Below the pieces are notes generated by a model that did not search any database, was not told the origin of the DNA, and saw nothing but the letters and a program-made list of their open reading frames with translations. Shown here one piece after another: positions 1,682 to 54,349 of a stretch of DNA of 64,000 nt; the stretch's first letter is position 1; each line of letters begins with the position of its first letter. This stretch comes from a virus (lineage: Duplodnaviria; Caudoviricetes). A program made the translations under genes and the position numbers. The stretch spans positions 1 through 64,000 of the IMG/VR virus record IMGVR_UViG_3300031555_001441, one strand, 5' to 3'.

Positions 1682-3082
1682 TTATAGAGTGACAAGATTT
1701 AATCCATCATCTTCATCAACTATATCCATTCCTGAATCAACTTCTGTTGAAGCTGTTATGCGGGTTCTACCGTTGACGATAGTACCTCTTATTAAGGATT
1801 GAATTTCAGATACCGATGTAGATGCTGTTACTTGTACACCCGAAAGTTCGACGCCAATAGCATTCGCATACAGCGAAGCATATGCATCTTGGTATTCTTG
1901 TATCAGTTTATCTGCTGTATCGAGGCGCTGAGTAAGCTTCTTGTTAATTGCATCCAGGTTAGATGATCTAGTGTTGGTCTCAGTAGCTGCGTTGACGGTT
2001 TCAGCGAGCTCTAGACGCAACTTCGATATAACAGAATCTTTCTCTTTTGACTTTTTATCAACAGATAAGATACTTTGTTTATATTTAAGGTTTGATTGCT
2101 GAGCTGCTTCAATTTCAGACTTTAATTTTTTATTTGAAGCTTTCAATGTTTCATAAGAAGCGGTTATCTTATCAAAACTAGCAATCAAATCAGATTGTTG
2201 TGCAGAAGTTATTCTTTCAATGGACTTGAGTTTACGTTGTAACTGATGATTTTCAACTTTTTCAGCAGATTCAACTTTTTGAAGTTCTCGGAGAGCAGAA
2301 GATGCTTCTATATATAGCTGTGTCATTCCGGCAAGTTTCTGAGAAAGCACTTCAGCAGTCAACTTATCATCTTCAGGTTCAGTTGCAGAAAGTATCTCAG
2401 CTTTATGCGCCTGTAGTTTCTTATATTGTTCAGATTGTGCTGCAAACTGAGATGCAACTATATCAATCGATTCTACAGTATTAAGACCTTCTAAGTTCTT
2501 ATCAACAGTTGCACATATTGCTTTGTACTTCGCTTGTGAATCAGCATCTGTTGAAGCAGCGATTGCAGTGAATGTAGGAATAGATTCTGGAAATGCTGGA
2601 AATGCAACTAAATCAAATCCTCTGAATACAAATGTTTCAGGATCAACTGAATTGTTGATTATATCACCGGCACCTCGGACTGATATTCCGAATCGTACAC
2701 CTGCCGCTTGGAATGTCTTTACAATGCGTCCAACAGGGGTATCAATAAGATTAAACTTACCATACACTTTACCATTGTCATCAATGTGACATTCTGTCAT
2801 TACTATACAAGCGTGTTCAAAATCCATACAGTTTGGATCTTCAGGATGTCCTAAGAACCCGATGTACCAACCCATATTTAGAGCTTGCTTGTATTCTTCT
2901 GAACTGAATACAGCTTCCCAAACTTCTCTAGTTATATCTAATCCGTTTAGATTAGTGATATTGGAATCAGCACATTCGCCGTCGTATGTTCCTAATATTG
3001 CAGGAGTTTTATAACCTTCAGGAAAATCAGCCGCGTTGATGTGTTTAAGTGGACTCATCTTATTATTTCCCACTTCAGTCAC
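1682..3082 (-). CDS. Prohead maturation protease (gp21-like) fused to a coiled-coil scaffold-like C-terminus
   Basis: GFLGHP (His), GISVRGAG (Ser) and FDLVAFP motifs; long coiled coil; directly upstream of the capsid gene. Confidence 0.85.
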   Translation of the reverse strand: MTEVGNNKMSPLKHINAADFPEGYKTPAILGTYDGECADSNITNLNGLDITREVWEAVFSSEEYKQALNMGWYIGFLGHPEDPNCMDFEHACIVMTECHIDDNGKVYGKFNLIDTPVGRIVKTFQAAGVRFGISVRGAGDIINNSVDPETFVFRGFDLVAFPAFPESIPTFTAIAASTDADSQAKYKAICATVDKNLEGLNTVESIDIVASQFAAQSEQYKKLQAHKAEILSATEPEDDKLTAEVLSQKLAGMTQLYIEASSALRELQKVESAEKVENHQLQRKLKSIERITSAQQSDLIASFDKITASYETLKASNKKLKSEIEAAQQSNLKYKQSILSVDKKSKEKDSVISKLRLELAETVNAATETNTRSSNLDAINKKLTQRLDTADKLIQEYQDAYASLYANAIGVELSGVQVTASTSVSEIQSLIRGTIVNGRTRITASTEVDSGMDIVDEDDGLNLVTL

Positions 3083-6091: not shown

Positions 6092-6173
6092 AGCTCGCTC
6101 CTATACCTTTCTATACAATTATAAAAGGTCCATACATAGAAAGAGACCTGCGTGAGCAAGTCTCTCGTATGTG

Positions 6174-31513: not shown

Positions 31514-31894
31514 TTAATCTTTGGGTGTTGCGGTATAGCCTGCTTTATACGTTGCATCCTTGTCCACTAGCTGCTGCGGAGGTACCCAACCTGCAAATGT
31601 ATAAGTATATTCATCGTCATCAGGTCGTGTCGGTGTTTTAACTTCAGGCGGATACACTGTAGGGTCTTCACCTTTAGGAACATACTTAGATTGTATTAAT
31701 GTGTCGTCATAATCTAAAAATGTTATTTTAAATATCTGTACAAATTCAACAATGTGACCTTCGGGTTCATTCTCATACACTCTCACAAATGCTGGATCAT
31801 TGATGTAACCAGGTACTTCCTTTTCAGCGTTAGGAGTAAACTCAACATCATAATATGTTTTAGTACTATTGCCGTAGTTTTTATATTTATACAT
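31514..31894 (-). CDS. Small virion-accessory protein with InlB B-repeat-like C-terminus; paralog of 44743..45000
   Basis: N-terminal YKNYG..VP.YINDPAF.R shared with the 44743 ORF; ITFLDYDDT..PTRPDD..YTFAGW..YKA. Confidence 0.65.
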   Translation of the reverse strand: MYKYKNYGNSTKTYYDVEFTPNAEKEVPGYINDPAFVRVYENEPEGHIVEFVQIFKITFLDYDDTLIQSKYVPKGEDPTVYPPEVKTPTRPDDDEYTYTFAGWVPPQQLVDKDATYKAGYTATPKD

Positions 31895-31921: not shown

Positions 31922-32815
31922 TTAGAGTATCTCGTCATATCCTCTCAACGACTGCGCCGCAAAATAAAGTATCTCTTGCGCTTGGTCAAGTATACTCAAA
32001 TCATCATCGCTTATATGACCCTCGGCATCTGGTACTTCTATGAATTCAGACAACCACTCTTCTAGATCATCTGCAATCTTTTCAGCTACTCTGCTCAACC
32101 GAGACAGCTCACTTGCGGAAGCACTCTTTATGTTGCAACCTTCGATATCTTCGTCATCAACACCGTCTGCAAATCTCTCTTCCTCGCCGTCATCGCATAC
32201 AGGGCAACTGCCCATATCTGTGAGCTTACGGCCACATTTCTTGCAGCAACCTTCTTCATCATAGTCATCTTCATCAGATGCTTTGATTTTCTTCTTGCCA
32301 CAGCCGGACTTGATATCTTTCTTGTCTTCACGATCTTTGACGAAATCGGGATCTCTTTCGGCATCTTCGTCGTAGTAGTCGACTTTCTTATTTGTCTTCT
32401 CAAGCTCCTCTACGACAGCTCTCGCAAGTTTGCTATCACGATGTTTCTTTGTTATCTCGTTCCAGATAGTTGAGAGCGGCTTGCCTCTGACATAATCATC
32501 TTCATAATCTTTGACGAGTTTGTCGATGAGTTTGTAATCAGTTGAAGCTTTGATCGATGATTTGACATCATCACCTCCATGAGAACACTCATCATACATG
32601 TCCCAGTACTTTCGAAAATCTTCTTCAGTTACACTGTAACCATCATCTGAAGCAAGCTGTCTAAATTCATCAAAATCGTTTACAGGTAGTCCATTCTGTG
32701 CATCGGTACAAGCCCATTCGTGCAAAAATTCAAACGGAATAGAATCTACTGCAGCCTTGACTGAAGATGCAGCTTTGATTTGATTCTTCGGCTGAACTAT
32801 AAAGTTCTTTTTCAT
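31922..32815 (-). CDS. Acidic modular protein with repeated I/V-K-A/S-S linkers; putative internal head protein
   Basis: QIKAASSVKAA, VKSSIKAST, IKSG, IKASD, IKSAS; CKKCG..CPVC. Confidence 0.6.
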   Translation of the reverse strand: MKKNFIVQPKNQIKAASSVKAAVDSIPFEFLHEWACTDAQNGLPVNDFDEFRQLASDDGYSVTEEDFRKYWDMYDECSHGGDDVKSSIKASTDYKLIDKLVKDYEDDYVRGKPLSTIWNEITKKHRDSKLARAVVEELEKTNKKVDYYDEDAERDPDFVKDREDKKDIKSGCGKKKIKASDEDDYDEEGCCKKCGRKLTDMGSCPVCDDGEEERFADGVDDEDIEGCNIKSASASELSRLSRVAEKIADDLEEWLSEFIEVPDAEGHISDDDLSILDQAQEILYFAAQSLRGYDEIL

Positions 32816-32842
32816 ACTTTTATGTTACCTTTCTACTGTGTT

Positions 32843-33736
32843 TTATAATGTAGGCGAATTAAACGCATCGTCAAATCGCTGTGTTTCATTTTGAAGATAT
32901 TCAGCAACTTTCTTCTTTGCTCTTTGTATGTTGTTAAAGCAGTCATGTAAGATGCCGAGCACATCTGTTTCATATGTTTCTTGAAGCATCCCGACTGTAT
33001 CACCGTTTTCATCTACCAGGAGATATGCTGTCTCTGTTGGACCATATGGATCATTCTTTGTTGTCCACTCTTGGATGCGATATCCTAGCATCTTTGCAGC
33101 TTCTCTCAAGAGATATTCGACCTTCTCGTCAACATGTAATTCGTGATCAGGTAAATGCTTGTATTTATATGGATCATGTTCACATACAATGTCCTTCGTT
33201 CCTTCAACATCTGCGAATACTTTATATGTAGAATCATCTATCTCACGAGCTCTACCCTGATAGCAGAGTCCTTCGAGCGCACGTAGAAGATCCCACATAT
33301 CTATACCGATACGATCTGCTTCAAATATGAGGCCGCCAGGCTCTTCTGCTGTATCACGTCTCTTAGATACGGTCTTTCCTGCAAGCTTTTTGACAATGAG
33401 ATCACCATATTGATCTGCTTCTTCTTTGCCGAAGTACCAATCAGAAGCAGCTTTTACCGAAGTATTCGCTTTAATTTTATATTTACCTTCGAGCATCTTA
33501 GATAACTCGTCTAACGATGTCTGTGGAACTAGAGTTTCTATAATTGCATCAAGCTTCTTCTTTGCATCACGAGCAAGCTCCTTATCGCCATCTTTCTTAT
33601 ACTGAACATAATTATCAGCATATTGATTGACCATACGCCGCCAATCATTGTTGAAATACTTAGTTAACTTTGTTGTCAGATCACGAACTAACTTATCGGA
33701 AGCAGCTGTTATCTTCGTGTTCTTTGTTATCTTCAT
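32843..33736 (-). CDS. Modular hypothetical protein with leader MKITKNTKITAAS; putative internal head protein
   Basis: ITAAS and IKANTSVKAAS linkers. Confidence 0.6.
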   Translation of the reverse strand: MKITKNTKITAASDKLVRDLTTKLTKYFNNDWRRMVNQYADNYVQYKKDGDKELARDAKKKLDAIIETLVPQTSLDELSKMLEGKYKIKANTSVKAASDWYFGKEEADQYGDLIVKKLAGKTVSKRRDTAEEPGGLIFEADRIGIDMWDLLRALEGLCYQGRAREIDDSTYKVFADVEGTKDIVCEHDPYKYKHLPDHELHVDEKVEYLLREAAKMLGYRIQEWTTKNDPYGPTETAYLLVDENGDTVGMLQETYETDVLGILHDCFNNIQRAKKKVAEYLQNETQRFDDAFNSPTL

Positions 33737-33748
33737 ATTCGCTCACTC

Positions 33749-34120
33749 TTATCCTTTATATCCAGTAGCGTACATCGCTCTGCGTTGAGCATCTGCTTCT
33801 TTCTTTGTATCAAATTCACCGTGTTCTTTGCCGGTGTCTCCTCTGTTGACCCATTTGCCGTTGTTCTTCTTAACGGTATCGGCTTTAACATTGCAGCTTT
33901 CTTCAATGTCGTTAGATACGCTCATCGTATTCGCACGCTTGCGGGATAGTTTGATATATCTGATTATGCTGTTGATACGTCTCTGAGTCTCTGTCGGCGT
34001 TAGTGTCCAAAACTGATCACTGAGATGTGCCAGTTTATCCTCGGCATCTTGTAGAATATCGTACGATTCTGTGCTACCAGTGGCTGACGCTTCTGCTGCT
34101 CTTATTATTCTTCTTTTCAT
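33749..34120 (-). CDS. Hypothetical protein with leader MKRRIIRAA
   Basis: AAGGAG RBS; internal VKADT. Confidence 0.6.
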   Translation of the reverse strand: MKRRIIRAAEASATGSTESYDILQDAEDKLAHLSDQFWTLTPTETQRRINSIIRYIKLSRKRANTMSVSNDIEESCNVKADTVKKNNGKWVNRGDTGKEHGEFDTKKEADAQRRAMYATGYKG

Positions 34121-34162
34121 ATTCTCTCCTTGATCTTTTCATTACTCTTTATCAACATGATC

Positions 34163-34390
34163 TTAATTGTATCCTTTAAGAGAATCTATGCACTTGATAG
34201 CTTTATCAACAGCTTTCAGTGCATTATCTATTCTGTGATAATCTAAGCTATCGCTGAAAACAGATTCAGTCAGCTGTTTCAGACAACGCTTGCTCTCATT
34301 TAATTTATCTTTTACTTCTTTTACATCTTCAGCAGTGTAGTCACCAGCTACTTCCATATATTGTTTGGCTGCTCTTATGTATCTCTTCAT
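34163..34390 (-). CDS. Hypothetical protein with leader MKRYIRAA
   Basis: AAGGAG RBS; ATGA overlap with the upstream gene. Confidence 0.6.
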   Translation of the reverse strand: MKRYIRAAKQYMEVAGDYTAEDVKEVKDKLNESKRCLKQLTESVFSDSLDYHRIDNALKAVDKAIKCIDSLKGYN

Positions 34391-34737
34391 ACATTTCTCC
34401 TTAAATATTCTACTTGTTTCATCGACAGATGTTCTCCATTGACGATAAACAATTTTATCTCATCTCTGTAGTAATCTTGTTTACCCCAGATGATTGTATG
34501 ATCTTTGCCATATCTTCTTATCGGTGACGGGCAACTGTCGATCATATCTGCATGAGTTATGATACGATCTTCACTCTCATGCGTATATTTATTGTATTTG
34601 TATGTTGTTGTGTAAAAGTATCCACGAAGTACATTGTCGTAATTCTCTGAATATTCTTCGAGTTTCGGCATCTGTATGAGTATGAATTTACTCAGTAGTA
34701 TGTCTCCGGCAGATGCTGATTTGATATATCGTTTCAT
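34387..34737 (-). CDS. Hypothetical protein with leader MKRYIKSAS (start revised to 34737)
   Basis: GGAG RBS; both promoter-like motifs upstream. Confidence 0.6.
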   Translation of the reverse strand: MKRYIKSASAGDILLSKFILIQMPKLEEYSENYDNVLRGYFYTTTYKYNKYTHESEDRIITHADMIDSCPSPIRRYGKDHTIIWGKQDYYRDEIKLFIVNGEHLSMKQVEYLRRNV

Positions 34738-34821
34738 TTCTGCTCCGCATAACAAATATTTATGTATATATCAATAATATGTAAGGTTATTCTCTTATAT
34801 ATGTTATAACGATTTTTCTTC

Positions 34822-36202
34822 TTATAGTGTGGCCATGTTTTCTTCGGATGTGATAACAGGTATGCCGTATTTGTCTGCGTATTCAAGAGCTATTGGATTG
34901 TCTGAATATATCACAACATTCCGGCAACCTCTGAAGATGCCGCTGTTCATACTGCGAACACTCATCGGAATGTTTATTCTTTCTAGTTTAGTGCATCCTT
35001 CAAATACAGCAGAATCGATTGAAAATACACCTTCCTCAATGCGAACATATTTTAGTTCTCGACATCTGCTGAATGCATCCCACGATATATGTTGAACACT
35101 TCCTGGAATTACTATCTGTTCTAAGCTCTCACACTCTATGAATGCATGACCTCCGATATATTCAAGACCTGACGGAAATACTACATTGGTTAATCTGTGA
35201 CAATATGCGAAAGCTCCTTGGTCTATGAAGGTAACACTGTCAGAAAAGTCAACCTGCTGTAAACTGACGCAATCATAGAAGGCTTCAGATTCAATTTCTA
35301 TAACAGTATCAAGTATCTTAAGAGTTTCAAGATGTCTGCACTCTCTGAATGCGTTTCGGTCAATGCTGTCTACGCCAGATACTACTGCATGTTTGATATG
35401 TGAACGAATTGCATCTGGAATGTAATCACCTATATATTCATATATTGAATTTTCTGTATCGCTGATATCAATTATTTGTGTTGGATCTATCTTCATGAAG
35501 AAATCTCTTAGGCCTCTACTGTCATCAAGAAATTCATTTACATCAATCGGATCGTCATTTCTGTCCATGAATTGTTCAGATTCAAAATGGAACTGGTACT
35601 TTATGCTAGGCACATGTTTGTTGATAATTACATACAATGGACCTTGCTTGGTATAATATTTGTAATAGTAATCATCTTCTGTTGAAGCTGTACACCATGT
35701 TGTACCTTCGCCTAGCTTACATGCAGCTGCATATGTCTTTGGAACATAAACTATCCACTCGCTATCTTCATACACCCTATCTGCATCTTTTTCAAGATCA
35801 ACATCGCGTCTATTCTTCTGACGCTCTCTCACCTCTTGACGATGCGTTTTATTCTTGTAAGACGAATCATCGTTCAGCATATTTTCGACGTCAGCGATAG
35901 ATTTGTATTTCATTATATCGCGATTGACAAGATTCTGCTTCTCAGATTCAAATCGAGTGAGGACATCAGTGAGATGACCTTCATTCACTATGGGGACCTC
36001 TATTAGCAAGTGTGAGTATCCATCTACCATAAGTTCCTAACTGCTTGCTTCCTTCTTTGTATGTTGGATCTAATTCAATCAGACGCTTTATATTAGTTGG
36101 TTCAACGTTCGGATAATATTTGTTTGTCATCTCATCGAACTCAGGAGTGCCGATCGCAGCTGCAAATATTTCTGACTGAGGATATTTGATAAATTTTTTC
36201 AT
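34822..36202 (-). pseudogene. WCTA-motif domain plus BspA-like leucine-rich repeat protein, split by one extra C at 35992-35995
   Basis: ORFs 35981..36202 and 34822..36030 join to match the paralog (LANKGPIVNEGHLTDVL); LRR_5-type repeats (IPGSVQHISWDAFSRC). Confidence 0.8.
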
Positions 36203-36228
36203 GCGGAACTAGCTCCTTTACGCAATTA

Positions 36229-37536
36229 TTATAGTGTTACCAGATCTTCATCTAAAGGAACAACAGGTATTCCTTCCTGTTCTGCATATTCAATTGCTAT
36301 TGGATTGTTTGTGTGTATTGTAAGATGATCACAAGCAGCGAACGCACCTTCGTCTATTGACGTTACGATGTCCGGTATCGTAACGCTTGTAAGACTGCTG
36401 CAGTCAAAGAACGCCCTCCAGCCTATACTCGTAACACCGTCAGGTATCGTTATGCTCGTAAGATTGGTGCAACCGGAGAACGTCTTATCACTTATTTTCT
36501 TCACGCCGTCCAGTATGTTTATACTTGCAAGACTTTCGCAGCCGGAGAACGCTCGATCACCTATACTAGTAACACTGTCAGGTATCATAATGCTTGTAAG
36601 ACTGCTGCACAAGGAGAACGCATATTGACCTATTTCAGTTACGCTGTCCGGTATCGTTACGCTCTTAAGATTAGTGCAGCCGTTGAACGCATGATCGCCT
36701 ATACGTTTAACTCGGTTAGAAATAGTAACCTTTTTGATGTATGATCTCACATTTTGTGGTATTGACTTGCCATCATATTCATATTTAACATATTTGCTGA
36801 TATCAATAACTTCTTCTGGATGTTTCTTCATGAAGAAATCACGGAGCGCATGATCTTTGTCTAAAAATGAATTTAAATTGATCTTTTTGTCGTTCTTGTT
36901 CACAAACTGCTTTGACTCAAAATGAAATTGATATTTTTCACTTGGATCTTTTTTGTTTATTACGATATAGTATTCTCCACCATATCTTGATTTATAATCA
37001 TTATAGTAGAAGTCACTTTCTGTTGAAGCAGTGCATCATTTTGTGCCTTGACCCAGCTTGCAAGAAGCCGCATACGTGTGAGGTACCCACGCCTCCCACT
37101 CGCTATCTTCGAAGACTTTCTCTGCATCCTTATCTAAGTCTGCATTCTTTCTATCTTTTTGTCTCTGCCTTACTTCCTGTCTATGAGATAAATCTTTATA
37201 AGAATTGTCGTCATTCAACATGTTTTCGACATCATCTACAGATTTGTATTTCATTATGTCTTTATCTTTGAGGTTCTTTTTCTCGTCCTCAAATCGGATA
37301 AGGACGTCTGTGAGATGTCCCTCGTTCACTATTGGACCCTTATTCGCCAGGTTGAGTATCCAACGTCCGTAAGTACCTATCTGATTACTACCCTCTTTAT
37401 ATGTCGGATCCATCTGTATATATTTCATTACATCTTCTACATTTGGATAGTATTTTTTGAATATGGCCTCAGCTTCAGGCGTGTTAAGGGCAGCAGCTTG
37501 TATGTATGATTGTGGATACTTTACAAAATGATGCAT
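36229..37536 (-). pseudogene. Paralogous WCTA-motif plus BspA-like LRR protein interrupted by an in-frame TGA at 37036-37038
   Basis: KLGQGTK-TGA-CTASTE versus paralog KLGEGTT-W-CTASTE; frame stays open into ORF 36229..36903 with IPDSVTSIG..AF.GC.SL repeats. Confidence 0.85.
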
Positions 37537-37617
37537 ATTGTCACCTCTATGAGTACAGTTACTAGTATATACATTATAGAAGGTTATAACATGTAAAAAG
37601 AACATTTAAGATTAACA

Positions 37618-37645
37618 ATAAAATGAGCTAGTAGACACTAGCTCA
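37618..37645 (-). terminator. Probable terminator
   Basis: 9-bp stem TGAGCTAGT/ACTAGCTCA followed by TTTTAT on the minus strand. Confidence 0.65.
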
Positions 37646-37697
37646 ATTTAACTTGCGGAATAAATGATTCTCCACGTTGATCTAATCAGCGACTGAG

Positions 37698-38351
37698 CTA
37701 ATCAGTAGAAGATGCACTCGTTTTGCCAAGTTCACTCATAGTTTGATGCAATGTGTTGAAGTAGTCATTAAACCATCTGTCAGACTTCACAAGTTCAACT
37801 GTAAGCTGTTTCATTATTTCACAAAGTTCAGATACACTGAAATTCAAACAACTATTTGAAATTACATTCGGTATGGAAGGAGTTCTAAAAATCTGTCCAT
37901 GATACACACTGTTAGATTTCACTTTCATATTTTTCATCTCAATATCTGAGATGTCGAACATAGATTGTAAAGATGAATATCGAATGTGGCATCGCAGCTC
38001 AACATTTTTACAGCTCAGTGTTTGATTTTCAATTGTCCACAGATTTGTCCATCTGTGATCAAATAAATCAGATAAAGGATGAACAACATCTACTCCCATA
38101 TCTGCTGGACGTACATTTACAAACGTAATAACGTCATCTGTATGATGTTTGACATAGTGCGAAGCTAGCGCTTGATTCATAGCGTATTCTAATGTAGGCA
38201 GCTGAATGTTGTAGTAGTGCATAACAGCATCTGTAAGCTGATCCAGATATTCATTGTCCTCCTCTGTGAGATCATCTGCTGTGATTTTGTTTGTGCTGCT
38301 ATTAACTATTCGCAGTACATTTGCCCATACATCATTCATACTAGTATTCAT
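37698..38351 (-). CDS. Hypothetical protein
   Basis: 217 aa; AAGGAG RBS; N-terminal IVNSS..KITAD. Confidence 0.6.
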   Translation of the reverse strand: MNTSMNDVWANVLRIVNSSTNKITADDLTEEDNEYLDQLTDAVMHYYNIQLPTLEYAMNQALASHYVKHHTDDVITFVNVRPADMGVDVVHPLSDLFDHRWTNLWTIENQTLSCKNVELRCHIRYSSLQSMFDISDIEMKNMKVKSNSVYHGQIFRTPSIPNVISNSCLNFSVSELCEIMKQLTVELVKSDRWFNDYFNTLHQTMSELGKTSASSTD

Positions 38352-38518
38352 ACTTTATATTTCTCCTTATCTCTGATATAATTACTTATAATTTCCGCAA
38401 CAGCATACAAAGTAGGCACACAGTGCTCCTCAACAGTGAGACGATCATTTGATTCTATTCTTACACGATACTTTTGATTCAGGTTATCAACATGTATTGT
38501 TAGATCTGAAGCTGTCAT
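38348..38518 (-). CDS. 56-aa hypothetical protein not in the ORF track (MTASDLTIHVDNLNQKY...)
   Basis: AAGGAG RBS, AATCGTTATA motif upstream, ATGA overlap with the next gene. Confidence 0.6.
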   Translation of the reverse strand: MTASDLTIHVDNLNQKYRVRIESNDRLTVEEHCVPTLYAVAEIISNYIRDKEKYKV

Positions 38519-38561
38519 AGGCCATCTCCTTATTTGTGTTACATATTATATAACGATTCAT

Positions 38562-38605: not shown

Positions 38606-40486
38606 TCACGAAATGAACTGATCAAGAGATACTGTGGGCGGAAGTGCAATCAGATCTATGTAGATATCATTGATCACACCAGGCACTACAAGATATATCT
38701 TTCCGATAACTGTATTAGCAGCAACTTGATCTTCTGCATTGATATCAGCAGACATCTTGATGTACCAATCCAATATAGCACCTTGATTCTTCATTGTATC
38801 AAGAAGTGGTGCACATCCTGCATAGAATTTATCATAAGCTTGCGAATTATTGTACTGGAATGTAATTGCAATCCCGCATCTGTATGCAATATCTTTAACA
38901 GCATTGACGAGATATCTAGTAGACATATTTGCAAGCGCTTGATATGTTGCGGGAGGTAGATCAAACAATGTTGAATTACCCCATATGACTGTGCCTATAT
39001 CAGGTATAGGTGTAAGAATATTCACACCAACACCTTCTTGTTTCTGCCACTTATCAAGAATAGACTTTGTTATTGTATAATCAAATTTTGTTATCTTGAC
39101 ATTGTGTTTCTTGTTACTAGGAATAAGCCATTCATACTGAGCAGCTTGATTCAATATCTGCGCTCTACTTATTATCAACGATAAGAACGACGGTGGCATA
39201 TGAACAGCTTTTGTCATGGTCACTAATGTAAAATATGCCCAGTTGAAGAGAATGCCCGAATTAGTATTAAACAATATTCCGTTGACATCATTTCCGCCTG
39301 CAGCTTGAAACTTGGACAGCTGTTGAACATAACCGCCCTCTGCTGTCTCTTCGTTGTAGAACCATACAGGCGGGCAGCTGCGAGGCGCATCGAGCATACC
39401 AGCACCGCATCTGCTGTAATATGCAACTTCCATTATCTTTTTATGAAGAGGTGATACTTCAAGAGGCGATACTGCAGATGTTTCCTCAGATGGATCTTCG
39501 TACTCAAACAAATCTTGATCATCCCAACCCGGAGAGATGATTCTCTGAGGATTATAAGACAACTTGTCTTTCAAAAGATCATATACTCTATAAGCTGCTG
39601 TGTAAACCCACTCAGTATAATATATCTTTGCAAGTTTAGATTCATTAGTGGCATAAGCTGCTTTCAATTCTGTAACTTTAGCATTTACTTTCGTCACATA
39701 CTTTGCTGTACTATTTGAACCATATCTAGATGTAAGAAGAGCACTAACTGCATTTGATATATCGGCTGCCTCAGGAGTTGCAGGCCAATCTTCACCACCT
39801 ATAAGAGATAGTTTATCTGAACCTGAAGCGGGTGCATAAGTATCGTCATCACTGATACTACCCGAAACGGTAAGATCTACAAATTTAGATTCTACTTCGG
39901 ATACAAGTGGAATGTTAGTTTCAACTTCCGGAACATTGAATGTAAAAGAAAGATTTTCAACAGCATTAGATACACCTGTTAGAGGATCTTCTACACGGAT
40001 GATAAGATTCCAATAGTGCGAAGTACCTAGCGGCTTTTGAGATAAGTAGCATCTTAGTGTATTGCCGAAGGTGCCAGGATACTTGGCCTTGACTGCAAGA
40101 CTGCCTTGATCTCCTATTTGAAATACGCCATCAGCTTTTGCTCCAGGAGCGAGACGACACACTAATACGTCATATCCAACAGATAAGAGGGTCAATGCCA
40201 TCTGATACGAATAGTCGTTTGCTAATCTATAGTTAGCAGCTGGACCTCTATATGTAGCTATAAATTGCTCCATACCTGCTTGATTAGACGAGAATCTGCT
40301 CCAAGCTACATCGGCAAGGTCAGCATCTGTTTCCGAAGCAAGTGTCTGAATGCCTGATAACGTAGCTGGATCAACATAACCGGGTCCCCAACATGCTGTA
40401 ATAGGTAACGCTATCGTTGCATAAGCATTGTTACCTATTGCATATGTGTAATTTTGAGAAATTTCGTTGATTACTATGTTTGCCAC
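38606..40486 (-). CDS. Tail sheath protein
   Basis: INEIS, CWGP, AKYPGTFGN, VIWGNSTL, RYLVN and INDIYIDL sheath motifs; GTG start with AGGAGG. Confidence 0.9.
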   Translation of the reverse strand: MANIVINEISQNYTYAIGNNAYATIALPITACWGPGYVDPATLSGIQTLASETDADLADVAWSRFSSNQAGMEQFIATYRGPAANYRLANDYSYQMALTLLSVGYDVLVCRLAPGAKADGVFQIGDQGSLAVKAKYPGTFGNTLRCYLSQKPLGTSHYWNLIIRVEDPLTGVSNAVENLSFTFNVPEVETNIPLVSEVESKFVDLTVSGSISDDDTYAPASGSDKLSLIGGEDWPATPEAADISNAVSALLTSRYGSNSTAKYVTKVNAKVTELKAAYATNESKLAKIYYTEWVYTAAYRVYDLLKDKLSYNPQRIISPGWDDQDLFEYEDPSEETSAVSPLEVSPLHKKIMEVAYYSRCGAGMLDAPRSCPPVWFYNEETAEGGYVQQLSKFQAAGGNDVNGILFNTNSGILFNWAYFTLVTMTKAVHMPPSFLSLIISRAQILNQAAQYEWLIPSNKKHNVKITKFDYTITKSILDKWQKQEGVGVNILTPIPDIGTVIWGNSTLFDLPPATYQALANMSTRYLVNAVKDIAYRCGIAITFQYNNSQAYDKFYAGCAPLLDTMKNQGAILDWYIKMSADINAEDQVAANTVIGKIYLVVPGVINDIYIDLIALPPTVSLDQFIS

Positions 40487-40555
40487 GTATGTGTACCTCC
40501 TAAGAATATACAGTGGTTATTTTCTTTTCTTATTGTGATTATCTACTATGTTTTT

Positions 40556-40565
40556 ATACAAGGTT
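40556..40565 (-). promoter_or_regulatory. Motif B AACCTTGTAT upstream of the sheath gene (family at 50, 4832, 6121, 19871, 24141, 34779, 37576, 45038, 55887; possibly 48683)
   Basis: Consensus (A/G/C)ACCTTnnAT recurring at the start of AT-rich leaders of mostly structural genes. Confidence 0.7.
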
Positions 40566-40999: not shown

Positions 41000-42130
41000 C
41001 TACCCTTTCACAAAAGTTTTATGAAACACGTTGTGACCAAATCTATGCAATTTGAGCCACTTGTGGTGATCATCATAATTGTTATAGTATGCAAATGAAC
41101 TCTGTATAGAATCACGAATATATTTCTGTTGCGAATCGTCTGACCATTTCTGTACATATATAAGAATACGCCTTCGAAAACGACGTACACTGTCTCGATT
41201 TCCGTGTGACACTACATAGGACGATTTGGTTGCGATGAAAGTAGCTTTGCAGAATCTTATTGGACGCACAATTGATTGTATTATACATTTGCTCGAATTG
41301 ATTGTGAATCCAAGTTCGGCTGCTTTCTTAATTATACGCTCTAGCATCTGTTTTACATCTCTATGCGGTGGTACAAACACAATGTAGTCATCCATGTAAT
41401 GTCCACATCCTGCAAGATGCAGTTGACAAGCGATGTAATGATCTAACTTTGATGGAGCTGCAACCATCTCGGCTTGACTTGGCTCTACCCCAATAGGCAT
41501 TCCACATTCACTAGATGTAGATTGAACTATTAGATCTACTAAATGACGAATTCTATCATTCTGAAATACATATCTATGCTGATTATACAATAACGAATGT
41601 GGAGCTGTCGGAAAGAACTGCTTCAGATCAAGTAGAATTACACTACCTTCATCATTGTACTTTCTCTGAAATTTCTGTATGTTTGTTTTAACTTGCCGAA
41701 ACGTGAAGTGTAGTCCTTTACCTTTGAGGCTTGCTCCGTTGTTATATAACAGATACTTCTTGTATCCCTTGAGCAGTATATCTTGAGTAATGACCTTTTC
41801 AACTTGTCGGTCACGTACATCTGGAGATTCAATGTGACGCAGTTTACCACGTTCATGTATCCAGAATGATTTTCGCTTTCTCGGTTTCCATGTATCTGTC
41901 AGCACTCTGAATAGTGCAACTGCAGTTATTGAGAATAAGTGACGTTCAAAATTCTGAATGCTGTACTTCCATCTGACGTTTCTACAGCATTGTTTTCCCG
42001 ATCTAAATAGACGATGATATGTGAATATTTCCTCAATTGTACCAATTGCATCTGAATTTTGCTTTCGTTTCAGCTCTCTGCGAAGTCGTCTTCGTTGATA
42101 TCTTTGCTCATGTCGTTCTGAACTTGTAAT
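41000..42130 (-). CDS. DGR reverse transcriptase (376 aa if started at ATT 42130)
   Basis: ERGKLR.I..RDR, LDLKQFF, MPIGVEPSQ and YMDD motifs; frame open 75 codons upstream of the tracked GTG to an ATT with GAGGTG RBS. Confidence 0.93.
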   Translation of the reverse strand: MTSSERHEQRYQRRRLRRELKRKQNSDAIGTIEEIFTYHRLFRSGKQCCRNVRWKYSIQNFERHLFSITAVALFRVLTDTWKPRKRKSFWIHERGKLRHIESPDVRDRQVEKVITQDILLKGYKKYLLYNNGASLKGKGLHFTFRQVKTNIQKFQRKYNDEGSVILLDLKQFFPTAPHSLLYNQHRYVFQNDRIRHLVDLIVQSTSSECGMPIGVEPSQAEMVAAPSKLDHYIACQLHLAGCGHYMDDYIVFVPPHRDVKQMLERIIKKAAELGFTINSSKCIIQSIVRPIRFCKATFIATKSSYVVSHGNRDSVRRFRRRILIYVQKWSDDSQQKYIRDSIQSSFAYYNNYDDHHKWLKLHRFGHNVFHKTFVKG

Positions 42131-43130: not shown

Positions 43131-44483
43131 TCAGACGACAAAAAGCGGGGAGCACCCATACGAATAGCCGGCGCTGCTACCGGCGGCGTTGCCGCTGCTG
43201 TTGACATAGCAGAAACTGGTCGCGGTAGAAGCACTTGGCGAACGAAGCCACCAGGTGACAGCAGAATTGGGTGATGACACATTGTACTTTTTCGTTGATC
43301 CACCATTGATATAATATTGATATTGCGCTTGATGATTTTGCTCTTCGGCATTAGCATAAGTTCGTGTGCCAAAGACTTCTTGTTCTGCAAGGAGCGGCAG
43401 ATAATCAACAAGAGCAGATACATTTCCGGCAATACTAGAAGAACCGCCGACATTATCTGTCCACTTGATTACAGGTTTCATCACTGCCCGAAGTGCAGCA
43501 GGTAAAGCAGCCATGAATGTATTCGCAGCAGGTGAAGTTGCAGTTGTCGATGATGCATCACTCTGTGCTGTATCTGTTGAACCAAGCAGATTATATCTCA
43601 TTCTTGAATCCTTCCAACCACCTGCGTTGCTGTTAGTGTTGTTCATGCTGAAATATGTATCTGCAGACACACTGCTTCCACCTTTTGAATCGTACAGAGT
43701 TATGTCAATACTTCCTGGATTTGCAGTTTTAAAAGTGCCGAAGGTGATGCTGTGCGAGTAACCAGACGCTTCAACTGCGATGTTGTGATCAAATCCCATT
43801 ATAAATGTGTATAGAGTTGTATCTGACGAAAATGTCAAACCGTCTCCAATCTTGGTTCCAGAAGGAATTATGATTGATTTAACATCGCCTACTGACCACA
43901 ACGACGAAGCTGTTCCAGCATCTGACGCAGCACGAACAACATTCCAAGAAGCTGTTTCAAGATCTACGAAATCAACGTAAGCTGCCCAAGCCGACAGGTC
44001 TGTTGACGGCGTAAATGGGAATACTAATCTTGTCGAAGCATCACCTTTTGTAGTATCCCATCCGACGAAGTGGTAATCTTGTTTAGTGGGTGAATCTGGT
44101 GCGACAACACGCTCACCCGATTTAACTTGATGTATTGCATACATCGAATCGTCGTCATCGTAGAATGTTAATGTCTTACCACCAGGTATTGTCGACCCTG
44201 TTTCTAATGATCCAACAACACCGCCGATGTTGACATCTTTTTTGATGTTTCCTGCAATCAGTGTATCTGGTTTAGTGATTGTTACTTGAGTCAATACCTT
44301 TCCAGAATCGGGAGTTATTGTTTGATCTCCAGAAGCCATATTCAATGCAGTCGTCTTTGTTTGTTCAGGTTTCTCAGAACCTAGAGTAAATGCAACATAC
44401 TCACCGGGAGTATCTGCATTTTCAATTTGCACAGTTTCGACGCCTTCAATAACATCGTTACCGAGTTTTACCTTTGCGCTCAT
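43131..44483 (-). CDS. DGR target: fibre/adhesin-like protein with InlB B-repeat and C-terminal CLec-type (DUF6273-like) domain
   Basis: PTKQDYHFVGW repeat; GGWKDSRMR, LLAEQEVFG and WWLRSP..FC.V...G..SP.F motifs; VR at the 3' end. Confidence 0.9.
   Translation of the reverse strand: MSAKVKLGNDVIEGVETVQIENADTPGEYVAFTLGSEKPEQTKTTALNMASGDQTITPDSGKVLTQVTITKPDTLIAGNIKKDVNIGGVVGSLETGSTIPGGKTLTFYDDDDSMYAIHQVKSGERVVAPDSPTKQDYHFVGWDTTKGDASTRLVFPFTPSTDLSAWAAYVDFVDLETASWNVVRAASDAGTASSLWSVGDVKSIIIPSGTKIGDGLTFSSDTTLYTFIMGFDHNIAVEASGYSHSITFGTFKTANPGSIDITLYDSKGGSSVSADTYFSMNNTNSNAGGWKDSRMRYNLLGSTDTAQSDASSTTATSPAANTFMAALPAALRAVMKPVIKWTDNVGGSSSIAGNVSALVDYLPLLAEQEVFGTRTYANAEEQNHQAQYQYYINGGSTKKYNVSSPNSAVTWWLRSPSASTATSFCYVNSSGNAAGSSAGYSYGCSPLFVV
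43141..43267 (-). repeat. DGR variable repeat (VR)
   Basis: 18 mismatches to TR, all at TR adenines on the coding strand. Confidence 0.95.
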
Positions 44484-44521: not shown

Positions 44522-44746
44522 TTATAATATTGTTATTGTCGAGTTTTCAAATGAATAAGGTGCTTTAAAAAGTCGAACTGTAGATCCTAACACTTCATAA
44601 CTATATGGATTCTCGGGCTGTCCTCCAGAAGAGTGTCCTGTAAATGCAGGGCTATCTACGTATGACATCTGTCTAACAAAATAGTTTGGAATTTCATATT
44701 TTGTTTTTCTTGCTTTTACTTTTACTTTTCCATAGAATTCTCTCAT
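44522..44746 (-). CDS. Small hypothetical protein of the DGR target operon
   Basis: C-terminus YSYEVLGSTVRLFKAPY resembles that of the upstream ORF. Confidence 0.6.
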   Translation of the reverse strand: MREFYGKVKVKARKTKYEIPNYFVRQMSYVDSPAFTGHSSGGQPENPYSYEVLGSTVRLFKAPYSFENSTITIL

Positions 44747-45000
44747 GTTATTTTCAATTGACCTCCTACTGTTTCATATGGTGCTTTTATCAATGTTAAT
44801 ACAGATCCTAATACACGATAAATGTAAGCACGAACAATATAAAATATTACAATGTGTTTAGATTCCTGTTCAGGATTGTCAAATATCCGAATGAACGCTG
44901 GATCATTTATATAATTAGGAACTGTAATAGTACCACCAGGATCAACTGTTTGCCCATAATACTGTTTTGTTACAGCACCATAGTTCTTATACGTGATCAT
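44743..45000 (-). CDS. Small hypothetical protein, paralog of 31514..31894
   Basis: Shared N-terminal domain; GAGGT RBS; promoter-like motif at 45038-45047. Confidence 0.65.
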   Translation of the reverse strand: MITYKNYGAVTKQYYGQTVDPGGTITVPNYINDPAFIRIFDNPEQESKHIVIFYIVRAYIYRVLGSVLTLIKAPYETVGGQLKIT

Positions 45001-46842: not shown

Positions 46843-47179
46843 CTCTACATTCTCTTACATATTGTTTTAACTCTAGCTGAAATGCTTCGAGTAACTTAAG
46901 ATTGACGTCAGGATATTCTGAAAAATATCGTGCGATCATATCTATCTTTAGTTTAAAATACAGTATACGTTTATCTGCATCAGATATCTCCGGATGTCGT
47001 TCTGCAAATATAAAGTATCGAGTTACTACAGACGAAAACGCCTTATGAACAGTTGCATCATCTTTAGAAAGATCAGCACGCTCTATAGTTTTAAAATTTG
47101 TGCTGTTATAGTTCTTTAGATCATGGAAAAATAAGCGTGTAAGCTCTAAACTAGATAGCACCTTGATCACCACCTTCAC
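46814..47179 (-). CDS. Hypothetical protein (start uncertain)
   Basis: ORF overlapping the portal stop. Confidence 0.55.
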   Translation of the reverse strand: MKVVIKVLSSLELTRLFFHDLKNYNSTNFKTIERADLSKDDATVHKAFSSVVTRYFIFAERHPEISDADKRILYFKLKIDMIARYFSEYPDVNLKLLEAFQLELKQYVRECRGDINESVAS

Positions 47180-48650
47180 TAGAACTCAAGTCAATATCCC
47201 AACTCATTGCATCTGCACCCATCTGAGGAAATACTTCTGTTAATATTTCAGTCAATGCTTTATGATAAGATTCCTCATCTTTCATACCCATTTCTTTCAT
47301 CAGAGCTACAAGCGCAGTAGCTTGATTGAGTGCTGCATCTCGTTTATCAAATTGAACAGTTGACTGCACTGTAAGTATTGGATTCATATGAAGCTGGAAT
47401 TTATCAATAAATCCTGACATATTTCGCATCTGGAAGTAATTATTCAAACCTGATCTCCAGCCTTCCATGTATGCAGTTTCAAGTCTCTGTAACTTGTTAG
47501 CATATACAATAGAACGTTGAGATAAAACAGCTCCGGCACCTCCTAGACCTTCATTCGACGAGTAGTTCAAATTTTCTTTAGGTACGCCTAATACCGAAAG
47601 CTTTTTATTTTCATAGTGTTCGAGTAACTTGTATTCGGCTTCTGTAGCTTCTGCCATGTTGAGGTCTGTTATCTCAATCGGAACTGTGCCATTAACTTTC
47701 GGTAAATAAATCAAATTGTTAGGACTTTGCGGATTTACAAAGCTTTGAACATCTCCTGTTTGTGTATTGAGAGAAAGTTGCTGCTCAACAGAATCTTTTA
47801 GCTGCTGTAAATTATCTCGAATCTCATCTTCTTCAGTACCTGCTTCAGCTGAAATGAACTTAATAGTTCTAGATAACGAAGAAAGCAGAAGAGCATCTTC
47901 TAACAGACTAAGAGTCTGAGTTGGCTGTGTAGCTTGTTCAAGCAACGGTTGCGCAAACTGAATATCATATGTAGATACAGTTCCGTCTTTATCAGCACCA
48001 TCTATTGTATATGTTCCTAGCAACCCACCTAACGAAAAATGGATAACAGCTGCATTTGGAAGAATGAGCGTTTCATTCAATCGCTTGTCATCAATGTCCA
48101 TTATATATCCTTTAGGTTCACCCTGTTGCCATAGATGTATAATAGTTTCAGGAGGTATCTTGTATGACGGTATGATGTCATAATCAGGTTCCGCTATCGT
48201 ATTGTTATCAAGCACAATACCTTTCTTCGAGAAGGTATCACTAGATTCTTTATAGAGATAAGTTGTTGGAAGATATAAGTTACCAATAGTCGCTAACTCT
48301 AATATGTGCTCCCGTACATATTTGTTTATCTCCCAACGCTTAAACAAAGCGTTTACAACTTCTGCAACATCTGCATATTTATCTTCAGTTGCAGTTGCCC
48401 AAATAATATCACCTGTTGTATTTGGTGTAGTTGCATCTGTGGCAAAATAATCAAGTGCTGTGCTTATTTGAGAATCACGTGCAAGAGCACGCATTGTGTC
48501 AATCTGTGTTTGTATATCAGAAACACTAGTATTGCCTCGTATATCAGATACTTTGTACAACGAACCTGTTACAACATATCTGAGAAACGACATTGCTTTT
48601 TGTACTTTGCCGCCTCGAGGAACTAGCCGATTTAACCATCTGTTGGCCAT
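47151..48650 (-). CDS. Portal protein (T4 gp20-like)
   Basis: DSQISTALD..ATDAT, VIHF, LLEDALL, LSVLGVPK..L motifs; downstream of terminase. Confidence 0.85.
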   Translation of the reverse strand: MANRWLNRLVPRGGKVQKAMSFLRYVVTGSLYKVSDIRGNTSVSDIQTQIDTMRALARDSQISTALDYFATDATTPNTTGDIIWATATEDKYADVAEVVNALFKRWEINKYVREHILELATIGNLYLPTTYLYKESSDTFSKKGIVLDNNTIAEPDYDIIPSYKIPPETIIHLWQQGEPKGYIMDIDDKRLNETLILPNAAVIHFSLGGLLGTYTIDGADKDGTVSTYDIQFAQPLLEQATQPTQTLSLLEDALLLSSLSRTIKFISAEAGTEEDEIRDNLQQLKDSVEQQLSLNTQTGDVQSFVNPQSPNNLIYLPKVNGTVPIEITDLNMAEATEAEYKLLEHYENKKLSVLGVPKENLNYSSNEGLGGAGAVLSQRSIVYANKLQRLETAYMEGWRSGLNNYFQMRNMSGFIDKFQLHMNPILTVQSTVQFDKRDAALNQATALVALMKEMGMKDEESYHKALTEILTEVFPQMGADAMSWDIDLSSSEGGDQGAI

Positions 48651-48683
48651 TTAAGGATTCACCTCCATCATTTACCAAATATA

Positions 48684-50276
48684 TTAAAGGTCCTGCTTAA
48701 GATCCGAATCAATATCAAATTTGTCAAAGAACTCTTGTTCTCTTATTACAGGAATACCTAACTGTCGAGCTTGCTGAATTATTCTAGCATCTACCTCTTC
48801 ATTCAAATCGCCTACTACAACACATGTAGTCTTGTCACTGATAGCTACTGTAACATCTGCGGAGTAGCTTCTAAGTATCATTGCAATTTCAGTATTAGTT
48901 CCATGCGAAAATCTACCTGTCAAGCAAATAGAGTCGTTTCTCAATATAGGAAGTCCATTAAATTTTCTTTCGGAAACTACAATAGTAATATTACTGAAAT
49001 GAAAACTAGAAATCAAATCAACAGTATTAGCCGGTTCAGATGCCCACATGACAAAATCAACAATGTCAGATTCTTGTATATGTAGCTGCTTAGAAATCAA
49101 TTCAGGATGAACTAAATAATATTCAAGAGTAGTCACCGAATTATTGCACTCATTGCACAGCCGACGAATTGTATCTTCTGTGATAGAAAGATTCGCAGGT
49201 ACAAAAGCTTCTATGAGCTTCGAAAATGTTGTTGATACCTTAGTATCTTGATATTCAGGATATGAAAATAAATCTAGCACAGAAAATAATGACTTAGTAG
49301 TGCGAACAATTTCTTTATATCTATCATAAGAAATTGTCGGAAGATCTAACACTTCTAGGAAATGAATAACTTCCGGATATCTATGAGAAACGCATTGTGG
49401 GTCGTCGCAAACAAATTGCCCGAAGGTAGGAACCGGTACTACTTTGTGACAGATCGGACACGTTATCATAGTAGGCTGAGAACCATACACATCAGTCAGT
49501 TTAATTTGTTGATCGTTCGTCATTTCTACATAAGAATGAACGACTCTAACTATCGTATCAAATCGGTTGTAAATCAGCAGGCTATTAGGCTGAATGTTAA
49601 ATTTTACTACATCCACCCATGAGGTATCAAATATCTTTTCACCGCAGGTTATTTTACCTCTGAAAAATCCACCTATAGATTGATACATCTCAATGTTAGT
49701 TACAATCGTAGATTTGAGTTCTAATGACGGACACTTGAACTGATTTCCTCTAAATATCCAATAATGAGATGGAACGCTGAAAAGATATTTGCTATTTTGA
49801 ACTGTTTGTAAATTAAATGTTGCTTCTGACGTAGCCGCCGATACTAGCGTAGCAGGAAGTAGCTCAAAGCCTGCCATCTTTAACCACTGACGAGCTGGAT
49901 GACCTCCGCGGAACATTGTAGCATAACTAAATATATTACCAGCATAAAATTGAATATCATTTGAATTGTCCTTAATACATTGCTTTATGAGTGAATAACA
50001 TGCATCAGGAATATCTCCAACACACTTTATATTTTCAGAAATACAGAACACACCTGTTATAAGAGTTGTTCCTTGTTTAACTGTAATATGAAGGGGCACT
50101 AACAGATGCTCACGAATAGCTGGTAAAATATCTACAGATATATCTTTACCAGTGTCTTCGTATCCTTCTGTAATACGATGCAATCTTCCTTCTTCGTCAT
50201 ACTGAAGAATAACAGGAAGGCCTGTGGGGACTACAGATACTAAATCGCCTGCGTTCAAAAGGTTTTTGACGTACAT
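48684..50276 (-). CDS. NAD-dependent DNA ligase-like protein (adenylation-like, Zn finger, BRCT) lacking the KxDG motif
   Basis: VPTGLPVILQYDEEGRL..GKDIS aligns by eye to KxDGLA.SL.Y..G.L..GEDIT; CPIC..C.DPQC; ICLTGRF..ARQLGIPVI.E BRCT. Confidence 0.7.
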   Translation of the reverse strand: MYVKNLLNAGDLVSVVPTGLPVILQYDEEGRLHRITEGYEDTGKDISVDILPAIREHLLVPLHITVKQGTTLITGVFCISENIKCVGDIPDACYSLIKQCIKDNSNDIQFYAGNIFSYATMFRGGHPARQWLKMAGFELLPATLVSAATSEATFNLQTVQNSKYLFSVPSHYWIFRGNQFKCPSLELKSTIVTNIEMYQSIGGFFRGKITCGEKIFDTSWVDVVKFNIQPNSLLIYNRFDTIVRVVHSYVEMTNDQQIKLTDVYGSQPTMITCPICHKVVPVPTFGQFVCDDPQCVSHRYPEVIHFLEVLDLPTISYDRYKEIVRTTKSLFSVLDLFSYPEYQDTKVSTTFSKLIEAFVPANLSITEDTIRRLCNECNNSVTTLEYYLVHPELISKQLHIQESDIVDFVMWASEPANTVDLISSFHFSNITIVVSERKFNGLPILRNDSICLTGRFSHGTNTEIAMILRSYSADVTVAISDKTTCVVVGDLNEEVDARIIQQARQLGIPVIREQEFFDKFDIDSDLKQDL

Positions 50277-53653: not shown

Positions 53654-54349
53654 TCATTCTATAATTTCTTTAGCTTCATTGCTCTTTGAAATTTCAAACA
53701 CAATTGCATTATCAGTGCGAGCTAATCTATTAAATGATAAACTTGCATATCCAGATAATTCTAGAAGCTGAATCACCTGTTCCATCACGTTATTAAGGTT
53801 GATGTTATCATTGTAATATATCCATAACTCGTTGTTCTTAATAGATACCCGAGATACTCCCATACAATCTGTTCGATTATTAAGTGTGCCTTTGATAACA
53901 TCAGGTGATATCTGAGGTTCATCATCAAGATAAGTAGTACCGATCATCGCTTGTATCTTGACCGACTCGGATACAGGTTCTTCTGAAGTTGATTCTTCAG
54001 CAACAGGCTCCTCAGATTCTGTTTCCTCATCAAGAGTTTGCTCTTCATCAGGAAGAGGTTCTTCTTCTAAAGAATCATCAGGCAAGCTTGATGGCATTGA
54101 AGGGGCTGACCTAGGTGCAAATTCAGGACCACCTTCAAATAAAACATCGGTTTGACCCTTCTCATCTGGCGTTTTCTCTTTCTTTTGGTCACTTTCACGC
54201 AAGACATATTCAGGCTTGAGATATTCTTTATCAAGATACCTACGCAGTTGTTGAACTAACTCTGTGTTGATAGGATTTTCAATTGCAGCTTTCAACGCAT
54301 CTTTACGTGGACTTGTTTTGAATAATTTACTGCTATATATTGCTTCCAT
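53654..54349 (-). CDS. Hypothetical protein with acidic low-complexity linker
   Basis: 231 aa; AAGGAG RBS. Confidence 0.6.
   Translation of the reverse strand: MEAIYSSKLFKTSPRKDALKAAIENPINTELVQQLRRYLDKEYLKPEYVLRESDQKKEKTPDEKGQTDVLFEGGPEFAPRSAPSMPSSLPDDSLEEEPLPDEEQTLDEETESEEPVAEESTSEEPVSESVKIQAMIGTTYLDDEPQISPDVIKGTLNNRTDCMGVSRVSIKNNELWIYYNDNINLNNVMEQVIQLLELSGYASLSFNRLARTDNAIVFEISKSNEAKEIIE

Follow-up and report, generated by a model that had tools for sequence, protein, structure and literature searches.

Seven consecutive genes on the minus strand of an uncultivated phage genome (31922-37536) encode proteins that begin with a basic leader of 7-15 residues, each ending in the motif [IV]-x-[AS]↓[AS], where the arrow marks the predicted cut. 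The genes lie in a stretch of 64,000 nucleotides, referred to here as the window, which covers the opening 64 kb of one virus record of 144,269 bp (IMG/VR record IMGVR_UViG_3300031555_001441; Caudoviricetes) and in which almost all genes are on the minus strand. Based on the comparisons described below, we consider it probable that these leaders are capsid-targeting propeptides that are cut by the phage's own gp21-fold head protease, with the proteins behind them kept in the head as cargo. A first-pass annotation of the window had proposed a capsid-targeting and injection system from the N-termini of eight genes, and all eight quoted N-termini were found in the sequence. The genes are as follows; positions outside the window are given as genome positions.

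31922-32815, minus strand: c31922, 297 amino acids, acidic, with a CxxC zinc-ribbon-like stretch; long leader, residues 1-15 (32771-32815)
32843-33736, minus strand: c32843, 297 amino acids, C-terminus P-T-L; leader, residues 1-11 (33704-33736)
33749-34120, minus strand: c33749, 123 amino acids, basic; short leader, residues 1-8 (34097-34120)
34163-34390, minus strand: c34163, 75 amino acids; short leader, residues 1-7 (34370-34390)
34387-34737, minus strand: c34387, 116 amino acids, first in a five-gene unit; short leader, residues 1-7 (34717-34737)
34822-36202, minus strand: leucine-rich repeat (LRR) protein LRR1; long leader, residues 1-14 (36161-36202); LRR_5, 7e-47
36229-37536, minus strand: LRR2, a paralogue of LRR1; long leader, residues 1-14 (37495-37536); LRR_5, 4e-50
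37698-38351, minus strand: the "eighth" gene, 217 amino acids; K-I-T-A-D at residues 22-26, no basic leader

Three of the genes carry a short class of leader, M-K-R-(Y/R)-I-x-[AS]-A, and one leader starts with M-K-I-T, while those of LRR1, LRR2 and c31922 follow a long form, M-K-K-F-[IV]-x-x-P-x-x-x-I-x-A-A. Similar leaders were found outside the cluster at genome positions 82251, 82648, 112381, 121864, 123035, 126600, 126882, 127906, 128133 and 141735, the last being a fourth copy of the long form, and the tagged families in this genome number ~15. The hydrophobic core (~10 or more residues) of a Sec, Tat or lipoprotein signal peptide is absent from the 7-16-residue leaders. Apart from the LRR proteins, the bodies behind the leaders are unrelated, as had been stated in the first-pass annotation: in an all-against-all BLASTP comparison with the first 20 residues removed, matches occurred among the LRR paralogues only. 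c31922 had no Pfam or PHROG match, c33749 had weak PHROG matches only, and the sole database match of c34387, whose true ATG lies 6 codons inside a TTG open reading frame (ORF), was itself. The codons used for R, Y, I, A and S vary among the leaders, and the upstream DNA has only a ribosome-binding site in common, so it is at the peptide level that selection acts. The eighth gene had been placed in the set for its K-I-T-A-D, which is present but follows an acidic or neutral start in place of a basic leader. It also belongs to a different transcription unit, with promoter-like motif A alone ahead of it (see below), and on these sequence features it is not counted in the leader set.

The leaders are not confined to one genome. 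We screened five genomes, consisting of this phage and four complete related genomes of 138-159 kb, and flagged 67 leader proteins, of which 61 were aligned and fell into 53 BLAST clusters. All four of the related genomes that were fetched carry leaders. The pattern M-[KR]-[KRL]-[YLVFRI]-[IV]-x-[AS]-[ASD] was found 24 times at N-termini, compared with once at 3,693 internal methionines in the same genomes, and is therefore beyond chance. One related genome has ~17 leaders, eleven of them in consecutive genes. Leaders that differ in length and sequence converge on one end motif, and conservation stops at that motif. Orthologues can have leaders of different classes: the leader of the LRR protein is long here and short in related genome G003, and in another orthologue group the G004 member has a short leader ahead of a conserved P-A-S↓Q site. 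Few of the leader proteins match a Pfam family; the families recognized include S-adenosylmethionine (SAM) methyltransferase, LRR_5, DUF5662 and KTSC. The leader-tagged SAM methyltransferase (Methyltransf_23; genome 121864-122841, L063:11864-12841) has 689 database relatives; among the 120 of these that were listed, 60 have a strict Ala-type leader, with many classes represented, and a few start with an apparent Glu-type tag.

By sequence comparison, the head machinery of the phage is T4-like, with a gp23-type capsid protein, an S77/gp21-type protease and a T4-type portal. The relevant head and tail genes are listed below.

193-1635, minus strand: major capsid protein, gp23 type (Pfam Gp23, 3.6e-14)
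1682-3082, minus strand: head-maturation protease fused to a coiled-coil scaffold (phrog_207, 7e-24; Peptidase_S77, 1e-5)
38606-40486: tail sheath
47151-48650: T4-type portal

In IMG/VR, 21 relatives of the protease were found, 40-57% identical to it, and the capsid and protease alignments were built from 14-16 relatives out of the 21 related loci. Its Peptidase_S77 match, at 25.6 bits, is slightly under the 27-bit Pfam cut-off, and sequence and profile searches of the PDB with the protease gave no match; the fold search alone succeeded. When the protease domain was modelled from 16 relatives, T4 gp21 was the best match (5jbl, probability 1.0, TM 0.52-0.60), with herpesvirus proteases next. 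The motifs G-H-P and S-x-R-G are invariant in the 16 relatives, as are His71 and Ser126. Behind the catalytic domain follow a coiled-coil scaffold and then an acidic tail that ends in L-V-T-L.

The first-pass annotation had noticed the leader ending in the capsid propeptide and the protease tail as well, and in the alignments the same motif is conserved where the capsid propeptide joins the body and at the junctions of the protease-scaffold. In the alignment of protease relatives, the N-terminus is itself leader-like, with a conserved K-x-[IV]-x-[AS], while [IV]-A-A↓S-T is conserved immediately behind the catalytic domain and [IV]-T-[AS]↓S-T-S-V ~45 residues before the C-terminus of the protease-scaffold. 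Core motifs number 8-14 in the protease-scaffold, compared to ~2 expected. The capsid propeptide is basic, comprises ~69 residues, and varies among relatives in length and sequence; two sites in it are conserved, I-T-[AS]↓G near residue 30 and [IV]-[TM]-[AG]↓A-T-N-T, which falls exactly at the start of the conserved body. While the T4 head protease cuts at (L/I)-x-E, the capsid and protease sites in this clade end in Ala, Ser or Gly and not in (Leu/Ile)-x-Glu.

The strongest evidence that we obtained, again from sequence comparison, is that tags are swapped between homologous proteins. LRR1 is made up of the leader, a conserved N-domain in which Cys, His and Asp are invariant, a BspA-type LRR and the C-terminus M-A-T-L. 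Its N-domain has 75 database homologues, of which at least 33 carry a T4-type tag, M-(R/K)-F-x-L-(V/I)-E, with the ending [LIV]-[LIV]-E. Two others, compared as proteins and 67-73% identical to the query, have an Ala-type long leader, and one of them ends in L-A-T-L. In the complete 123.5-kb genome G006, unrelated neighbouring genes have a Glu-type tag in common, and the protease-scaffold next to them reads M-V-E↓S and V-T-E↓A at the positions of I-A-A↓S and I-T-A↓S here. Glu-type and Ala-type leaders numbered three and zero, respectively, in G006, compared to zero and 24 in the five clade genomes.

The motif was also found at joints inside proteins. An exhaustive search with c32843 returned 118 relatives, most of which matched residues 97-175 only. 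This is a mobile 78-residue module (98-175) that is immediately preceded in c32843 by an internal V-K-A-A↓S joint (residues 94-98) and that occurs in other proteins behind Ala-type leaders, behind internal [IV]-x-[AGS]-[AS] joints of multidomain proteins, or without a leader. Because the module directly follows the motif, the motif marks module joins, as would be expected of protease-cut cargo. c31922 has seven [IV]-K-[AS]-[ASG] sites, compared to 0.10 expected (Poisson P ~2e-11), and is alone among the predicted proteins of the five genomes in having at least three. Collectively, tag swapping in step with the protease site type and module boundaries at the motif argue that the head protease reads the tag.

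In the mechanism that we propose, each cargo protein would be made with a basic N-terminal tag of 7-16 residues, which, by analogy with T4, would direct it into the assembling prohead core. The scaffold-fused gp21-fold protease would cut after the small residue of [IV]-x-[AS]↓[AS], and the capsid propeptide and the protease's own scaffold would be cut at the same type of site. Larger cargo proteins (c31922 and c32843) have extra predicted internal sites and would probably be cut into separate modules. The trimmed proteins would remain in the head with the DNA and probably reach the host at infection. From the patterns described above we infer cleavage and its exact scissile bond, together with packaging, copy number and injection.

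Some cargo may carry a second address at its other end. LRR2 ends in L-V-T-L and P0007, an LRR homologue within the clade, in L-A-T-L. In this genome, the ending [LM]-[VA]-T-L was found only on the protease-scaffold and on three LRR proteins:

1682-1700: protease-scaffold
34822-34840: LRR1
36229-36247: LRR2
genome 141203-141220: third LRR protein

The third LRR protein is encoded by an ORF of its own (genome 141203-141688) that follows a leader-bearing ORF of 102 amino acids, and an exact-word scan found no other copies of LRR1. As judged from its sequence, the [LM]-[VA]-T-L tail may be a second address that mimics the capsid-binding end of the scaffold. A complex prediction for the capsid protein (14-row alignment) and the last 75 residues of LRR2 scored 0.00, which is evidence neither way, and a search of LRR relatives for co-variation between their tail and that of the protease yielded two loci, which are too few. 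The N-domain of these proteins belongs to a phage family in which Trp, Cys (in W-C-T-A), His and Asp are invariant (residues 17-245 of P0007; residues 1-190 of 34822-36030), and it is joined to varied C-terminal repeat domains, including LRR_5, LRR_8, WG repeats, HEAT and DUF285. Its invariant residues suggest that it could be a Cys-His-Asp enzyme. A fold search with the full LRR protein was dominated by matches to the LRR part, and in the atlas the N-domain matched viral hypothetical clusters only, plus one weak PcfJ lead. A more speculative extension, which we regard as doubtful, is that the address is two-ended and exchangeable, consisting of a protease-matched N-terminal tag plus, on some cargo, a scaffold-like tail of acidic residues followed by L-V-T-L, and that the packed enzymes, namely the SAM methyltransferase and the Cys-His-Asp domain fused to LRR, are injected as first-strike anti-defence effectors.

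With respect to expression, two promoter-like motifs were recognized. Motif A (G-A-A-T-C-G-T-T-A-T-A-G) lies ahead of the clamp loader, clamp, helicase and SbcC-like genes. Motif B (RACCTT-N1-3-ATR) lies 20-80 nucleotides ahead of the sheath, portal, head operon and tail genes, and occurs 34 times on the minus (coding) strand compared to 6 times on the plus strand. Several genes have A and B in tandem. The elements around the cargo cluster, with further examples of motif B, are listed below.

34805-34813 (A) and 34777-34788 (B), minus strand: motif A, then motif B, ahead of the c34387 unit
37574-37585, minus strand: motif B, ~40 nucleotides ahead of the LRR2 start
37624-37645, minus strand: terminator-like hairpin, which parts the unit of 38348-38518 and 37698-38351 from the LRR unit
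38549-38557, minus strand: motif A ahead of the eighth gene
40554-40565, 48681-48692 and 6119-6130: further motif B examples

LRR2 and LRR1 have motif B only, and leader genes elsewhere in the genome are mostly behind B. Replication genes have motif A only, and none of those identified carries a leader. The distribution of these promoter-like motifs fits late or mixed expression of the leader genes.

Several observations weigh against reading the leaders as tags for the head protease, and the evidence above should be considered together with them. The core motif [IV]-x-[AS]-[ASG] is information-poor, a matrix trained solely on the capsid and protease sites was over-fitted to the flanking Thr and enriched N-termini weakly, and motif density was similar in cargo bodies and other proteins (0.54 versus 0.46 per 100 residues, P = 0.15). 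For these three reasons, the motif match between leaders and structural sites is weak evidence when taken alone, and since cargo bodies are neither enriched nor depleted, recognition must need context beyond the motif. The comparison with Glu-type leaders covers one inspected genome, G006. Both LRR genes in the cluster are interrupted: in LRR1, one surplus C in a C4 run (35992-35995) disrupts the reading frame, and LRR2 has an in-frame TGA (37036-37038) at the Trp of W-C-T-A, which is Trp in LRR1 and invariant in the family. These interruptions could be real decay or assembly errors; recoding of the TGA is unlikely, with no suppressor tRNA among the six tRNAs. We found neither a cultured member of the clade nor a proteome, and the nearest cultured capsid proteins, from Bacillus, Streptococcus and Listeria myophages, are ~25% identical. 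The first-pass annotation had placed the operons behind motif B, which applies to most cargo units but only in part to the five-gene unit from c34387 to c31922, where A is present in addition to B, and not to 126600 and 126882, which have only A nearby. Given these exceptions, expression of the leader genes may not be strictly late.

We also considered other explanations for the leaders. The tagged proteins might be targeted and cut but serve mostly as prohead core or scaffold-like proteins that are degraded or expelled at DNA packaging, instead of effectors delivered to the host. The T4 protease that trims the internal proteins also cuts the core proteins gp22, gp67 and gp68, some tagged proteins are conserved in the clade and very acidic like core proteins (for example genome 123035-123424, with an isoelectric point of 4.1, and its orthologues), and c31922 would end up in small pieces. 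Most tagged proteins are lineage-specific, however, and a set in which 61 proteins form 53 clusters is unlike a structural core. Several also have enzyme or binding domains (SAM methyltransferase, LRR, the invariant Cys-His-Asp domain), and overall we judge a core role for most of the set to be unlikely.

Two further explanations would leave the phage protease without a part in leader removal. The first of these, that the leader stays uncut as an N-terminal interaction helix or a translation-initiation feature with A-rich second and third codons, and that its small-residue ending is due to chance, draws on the frequency of M-K-K and M-K-R starts in AT-rich genomes and on the low information content of the core motif. 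It is at odds with the variation of synonymous codons, the lack of conservation in the upstream DNA, and the convergence of leaders unrelated in sequence and length on one ending. That this ending becomes Glu in lineages with Glu-type protease sites, and that internal module joints carry the same motif, also count against an uncut leader, which we consider very improbable. We give even less credence to removal of the leader by a host protease in the manner of Prp, a Firmicute enzyme that cuts after Phe-Ala when it trims ribosomal protein L27 and, in staphylococcal phage 80alpha, the capsid and scaffold proteins. Such a cut would follow a small residue, and the LRR1 leader ending, I-F-A-A, slightly resembles the L27 site, but the Phe-Phe-Ala context is missing in most leaders and the phage's own protease has the motif at its own domain junctions.

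A megablast search with the region found no similar DNA among cultured phages, and no such leaders were present in the 41 kb inspected of Bacillus phage vB_BceM-HSE3, the nearest cultured relative. Near the terminase genes, 53654-54349 encodes a conserved protein of 231 amino acids whose orthologues in related genomes G002 and G003 have [IL]-x-A-A ~22-28 residues in, and this protein may be an additional substrate of the protease, one whose propeptide is longer. A reverse transcriptase with a Y-M-D-D motif (41000-41905) adjoins a protein of 450 amino acids (43131-44483) that has a Listeria-Bacteroides repeat, DUF6273 at its C-terminus and a Hoc-like match in PHROG; together they look like a diversity-generating retroelement that targets a head or tail decoration protein. 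Two small paralogous proteins (31514-31894 and 44743-45000) have a common N-terminal motif, Y-K-N-Y-G ... Y-I-N-D-P-A-F. The gene for the former ends the cargo unit and that for the latter adjoins the retroelement target gene.

If the leaders are indeed read by the head protease, a phage protease of the gp21 family would show an Ala↓Ser specificity like that of herpesviruses, which would bring capsid maturation in phages and in herpesviruses closer together. A sequence rule would then predict the proteins that travel in the capsid across a large group of uncultured phages, and would supply a ready list of candidate injected effectors, including the widespread tagged methyltransferase family with its 689 relatives. 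That one and the same cargo bears a Glu-type tag in some lineages and an Ala-type tag in others would show that the tag is portable, which would be useful for loading foreign proteins into phage heads. Were the two-ended address code also true, sequence alone would suffice to read which proteins uncultured phages inject.

To our knowledge, the phage head proteases studied so far cut after Glu, and our literature searches turned up no paper that describes this leader or a phage head protease of the Ala/Ser type. The closest known system is that of T4, in which a 10-residue capsid targeting sequence is removed by gp21 (Mullaney and Black 1996, as cited in PMC10052503); this sequence is present on IPI-III and Alt and is cut off by gp21 (reviewed in PMC3012670 and PMC9958956). 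As in T4, a short N-terminal tag on unrelated proteins ends in a cut motif of the gp21 family, with a hydrophobic residue two places ahead of the cut, and the head has a capsid protein of the gp23 type and a portal of the T4 type. Unlike in T4, the predicted cut follows Ala or Ser instead of Glu, the leaders are basic and of several length classes, far more families are tagged, some cargo has internal sites, and the protease is fused to the scaffold. In the giant phages phiKZ and SPN3US (gp175, gp245), many head-internal proteins, ejection proteins among them, lose N-terminal propeptides to a gp21-type protease, some at multiple sites (PMC10052503, PMC5694885), as is predicted here. The SPN3US protease cuts at A-x-E (PMC10052503). 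Unlike the phage described here, phiKZ and SPN3US have proteases that cut after Glu, no short common leader, and much larger genomes and heads.

In the herpesvirus UL26 protease-scaffold, Y-L-Q-A↓T and V-Q-A↓S are examples of the release and maturation sites (PMC4498786). Like UL26 (assemblin), the phage protein is a fusion of protease and scaffold with a related fold, has sites behind the protease domain and near the C-terminus, ahead of a conserved tail, and shares sites of the type hydrophobic-x-Ala↓Ser, as seen when the alignment of 16 relatives was compared with the published sites (PMC4498786). The fold of the phage protease is nonetheless nearest to T4 gp21, and herpesviruses have no known set of leader-tagged cargo; the likeness to assemblin is one of how the protein would work and not of membership.

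DarB of phage P1 carries methyltransferase motifs, and the tagged SAM methyltransferase (genome 121864-122841) recalls this packaged protein. The P1 Dar proteins (DarA, Hdf and DarB) are antirestriction proteins packaged in the capsid (PMC9024508, PMC12810830), and, as is predicted for the cargo here, they travel inside the head and are delivered along with the DNA. In contrast to the system described here, P1 loading needs an ordered Dar set and not a short common cleavable leader, and the two share no homology. The first-pass annotation had put the leader-tagged cargo forward as a candidate for an undescribed system, a description that goes too far given that the principle is that of T4 with different cut-site chemistry. 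Our comparisons suggest that the system is most likely a variant of T4 capsid targeting in which the cut falls after Ala or Ser instead of Glu.

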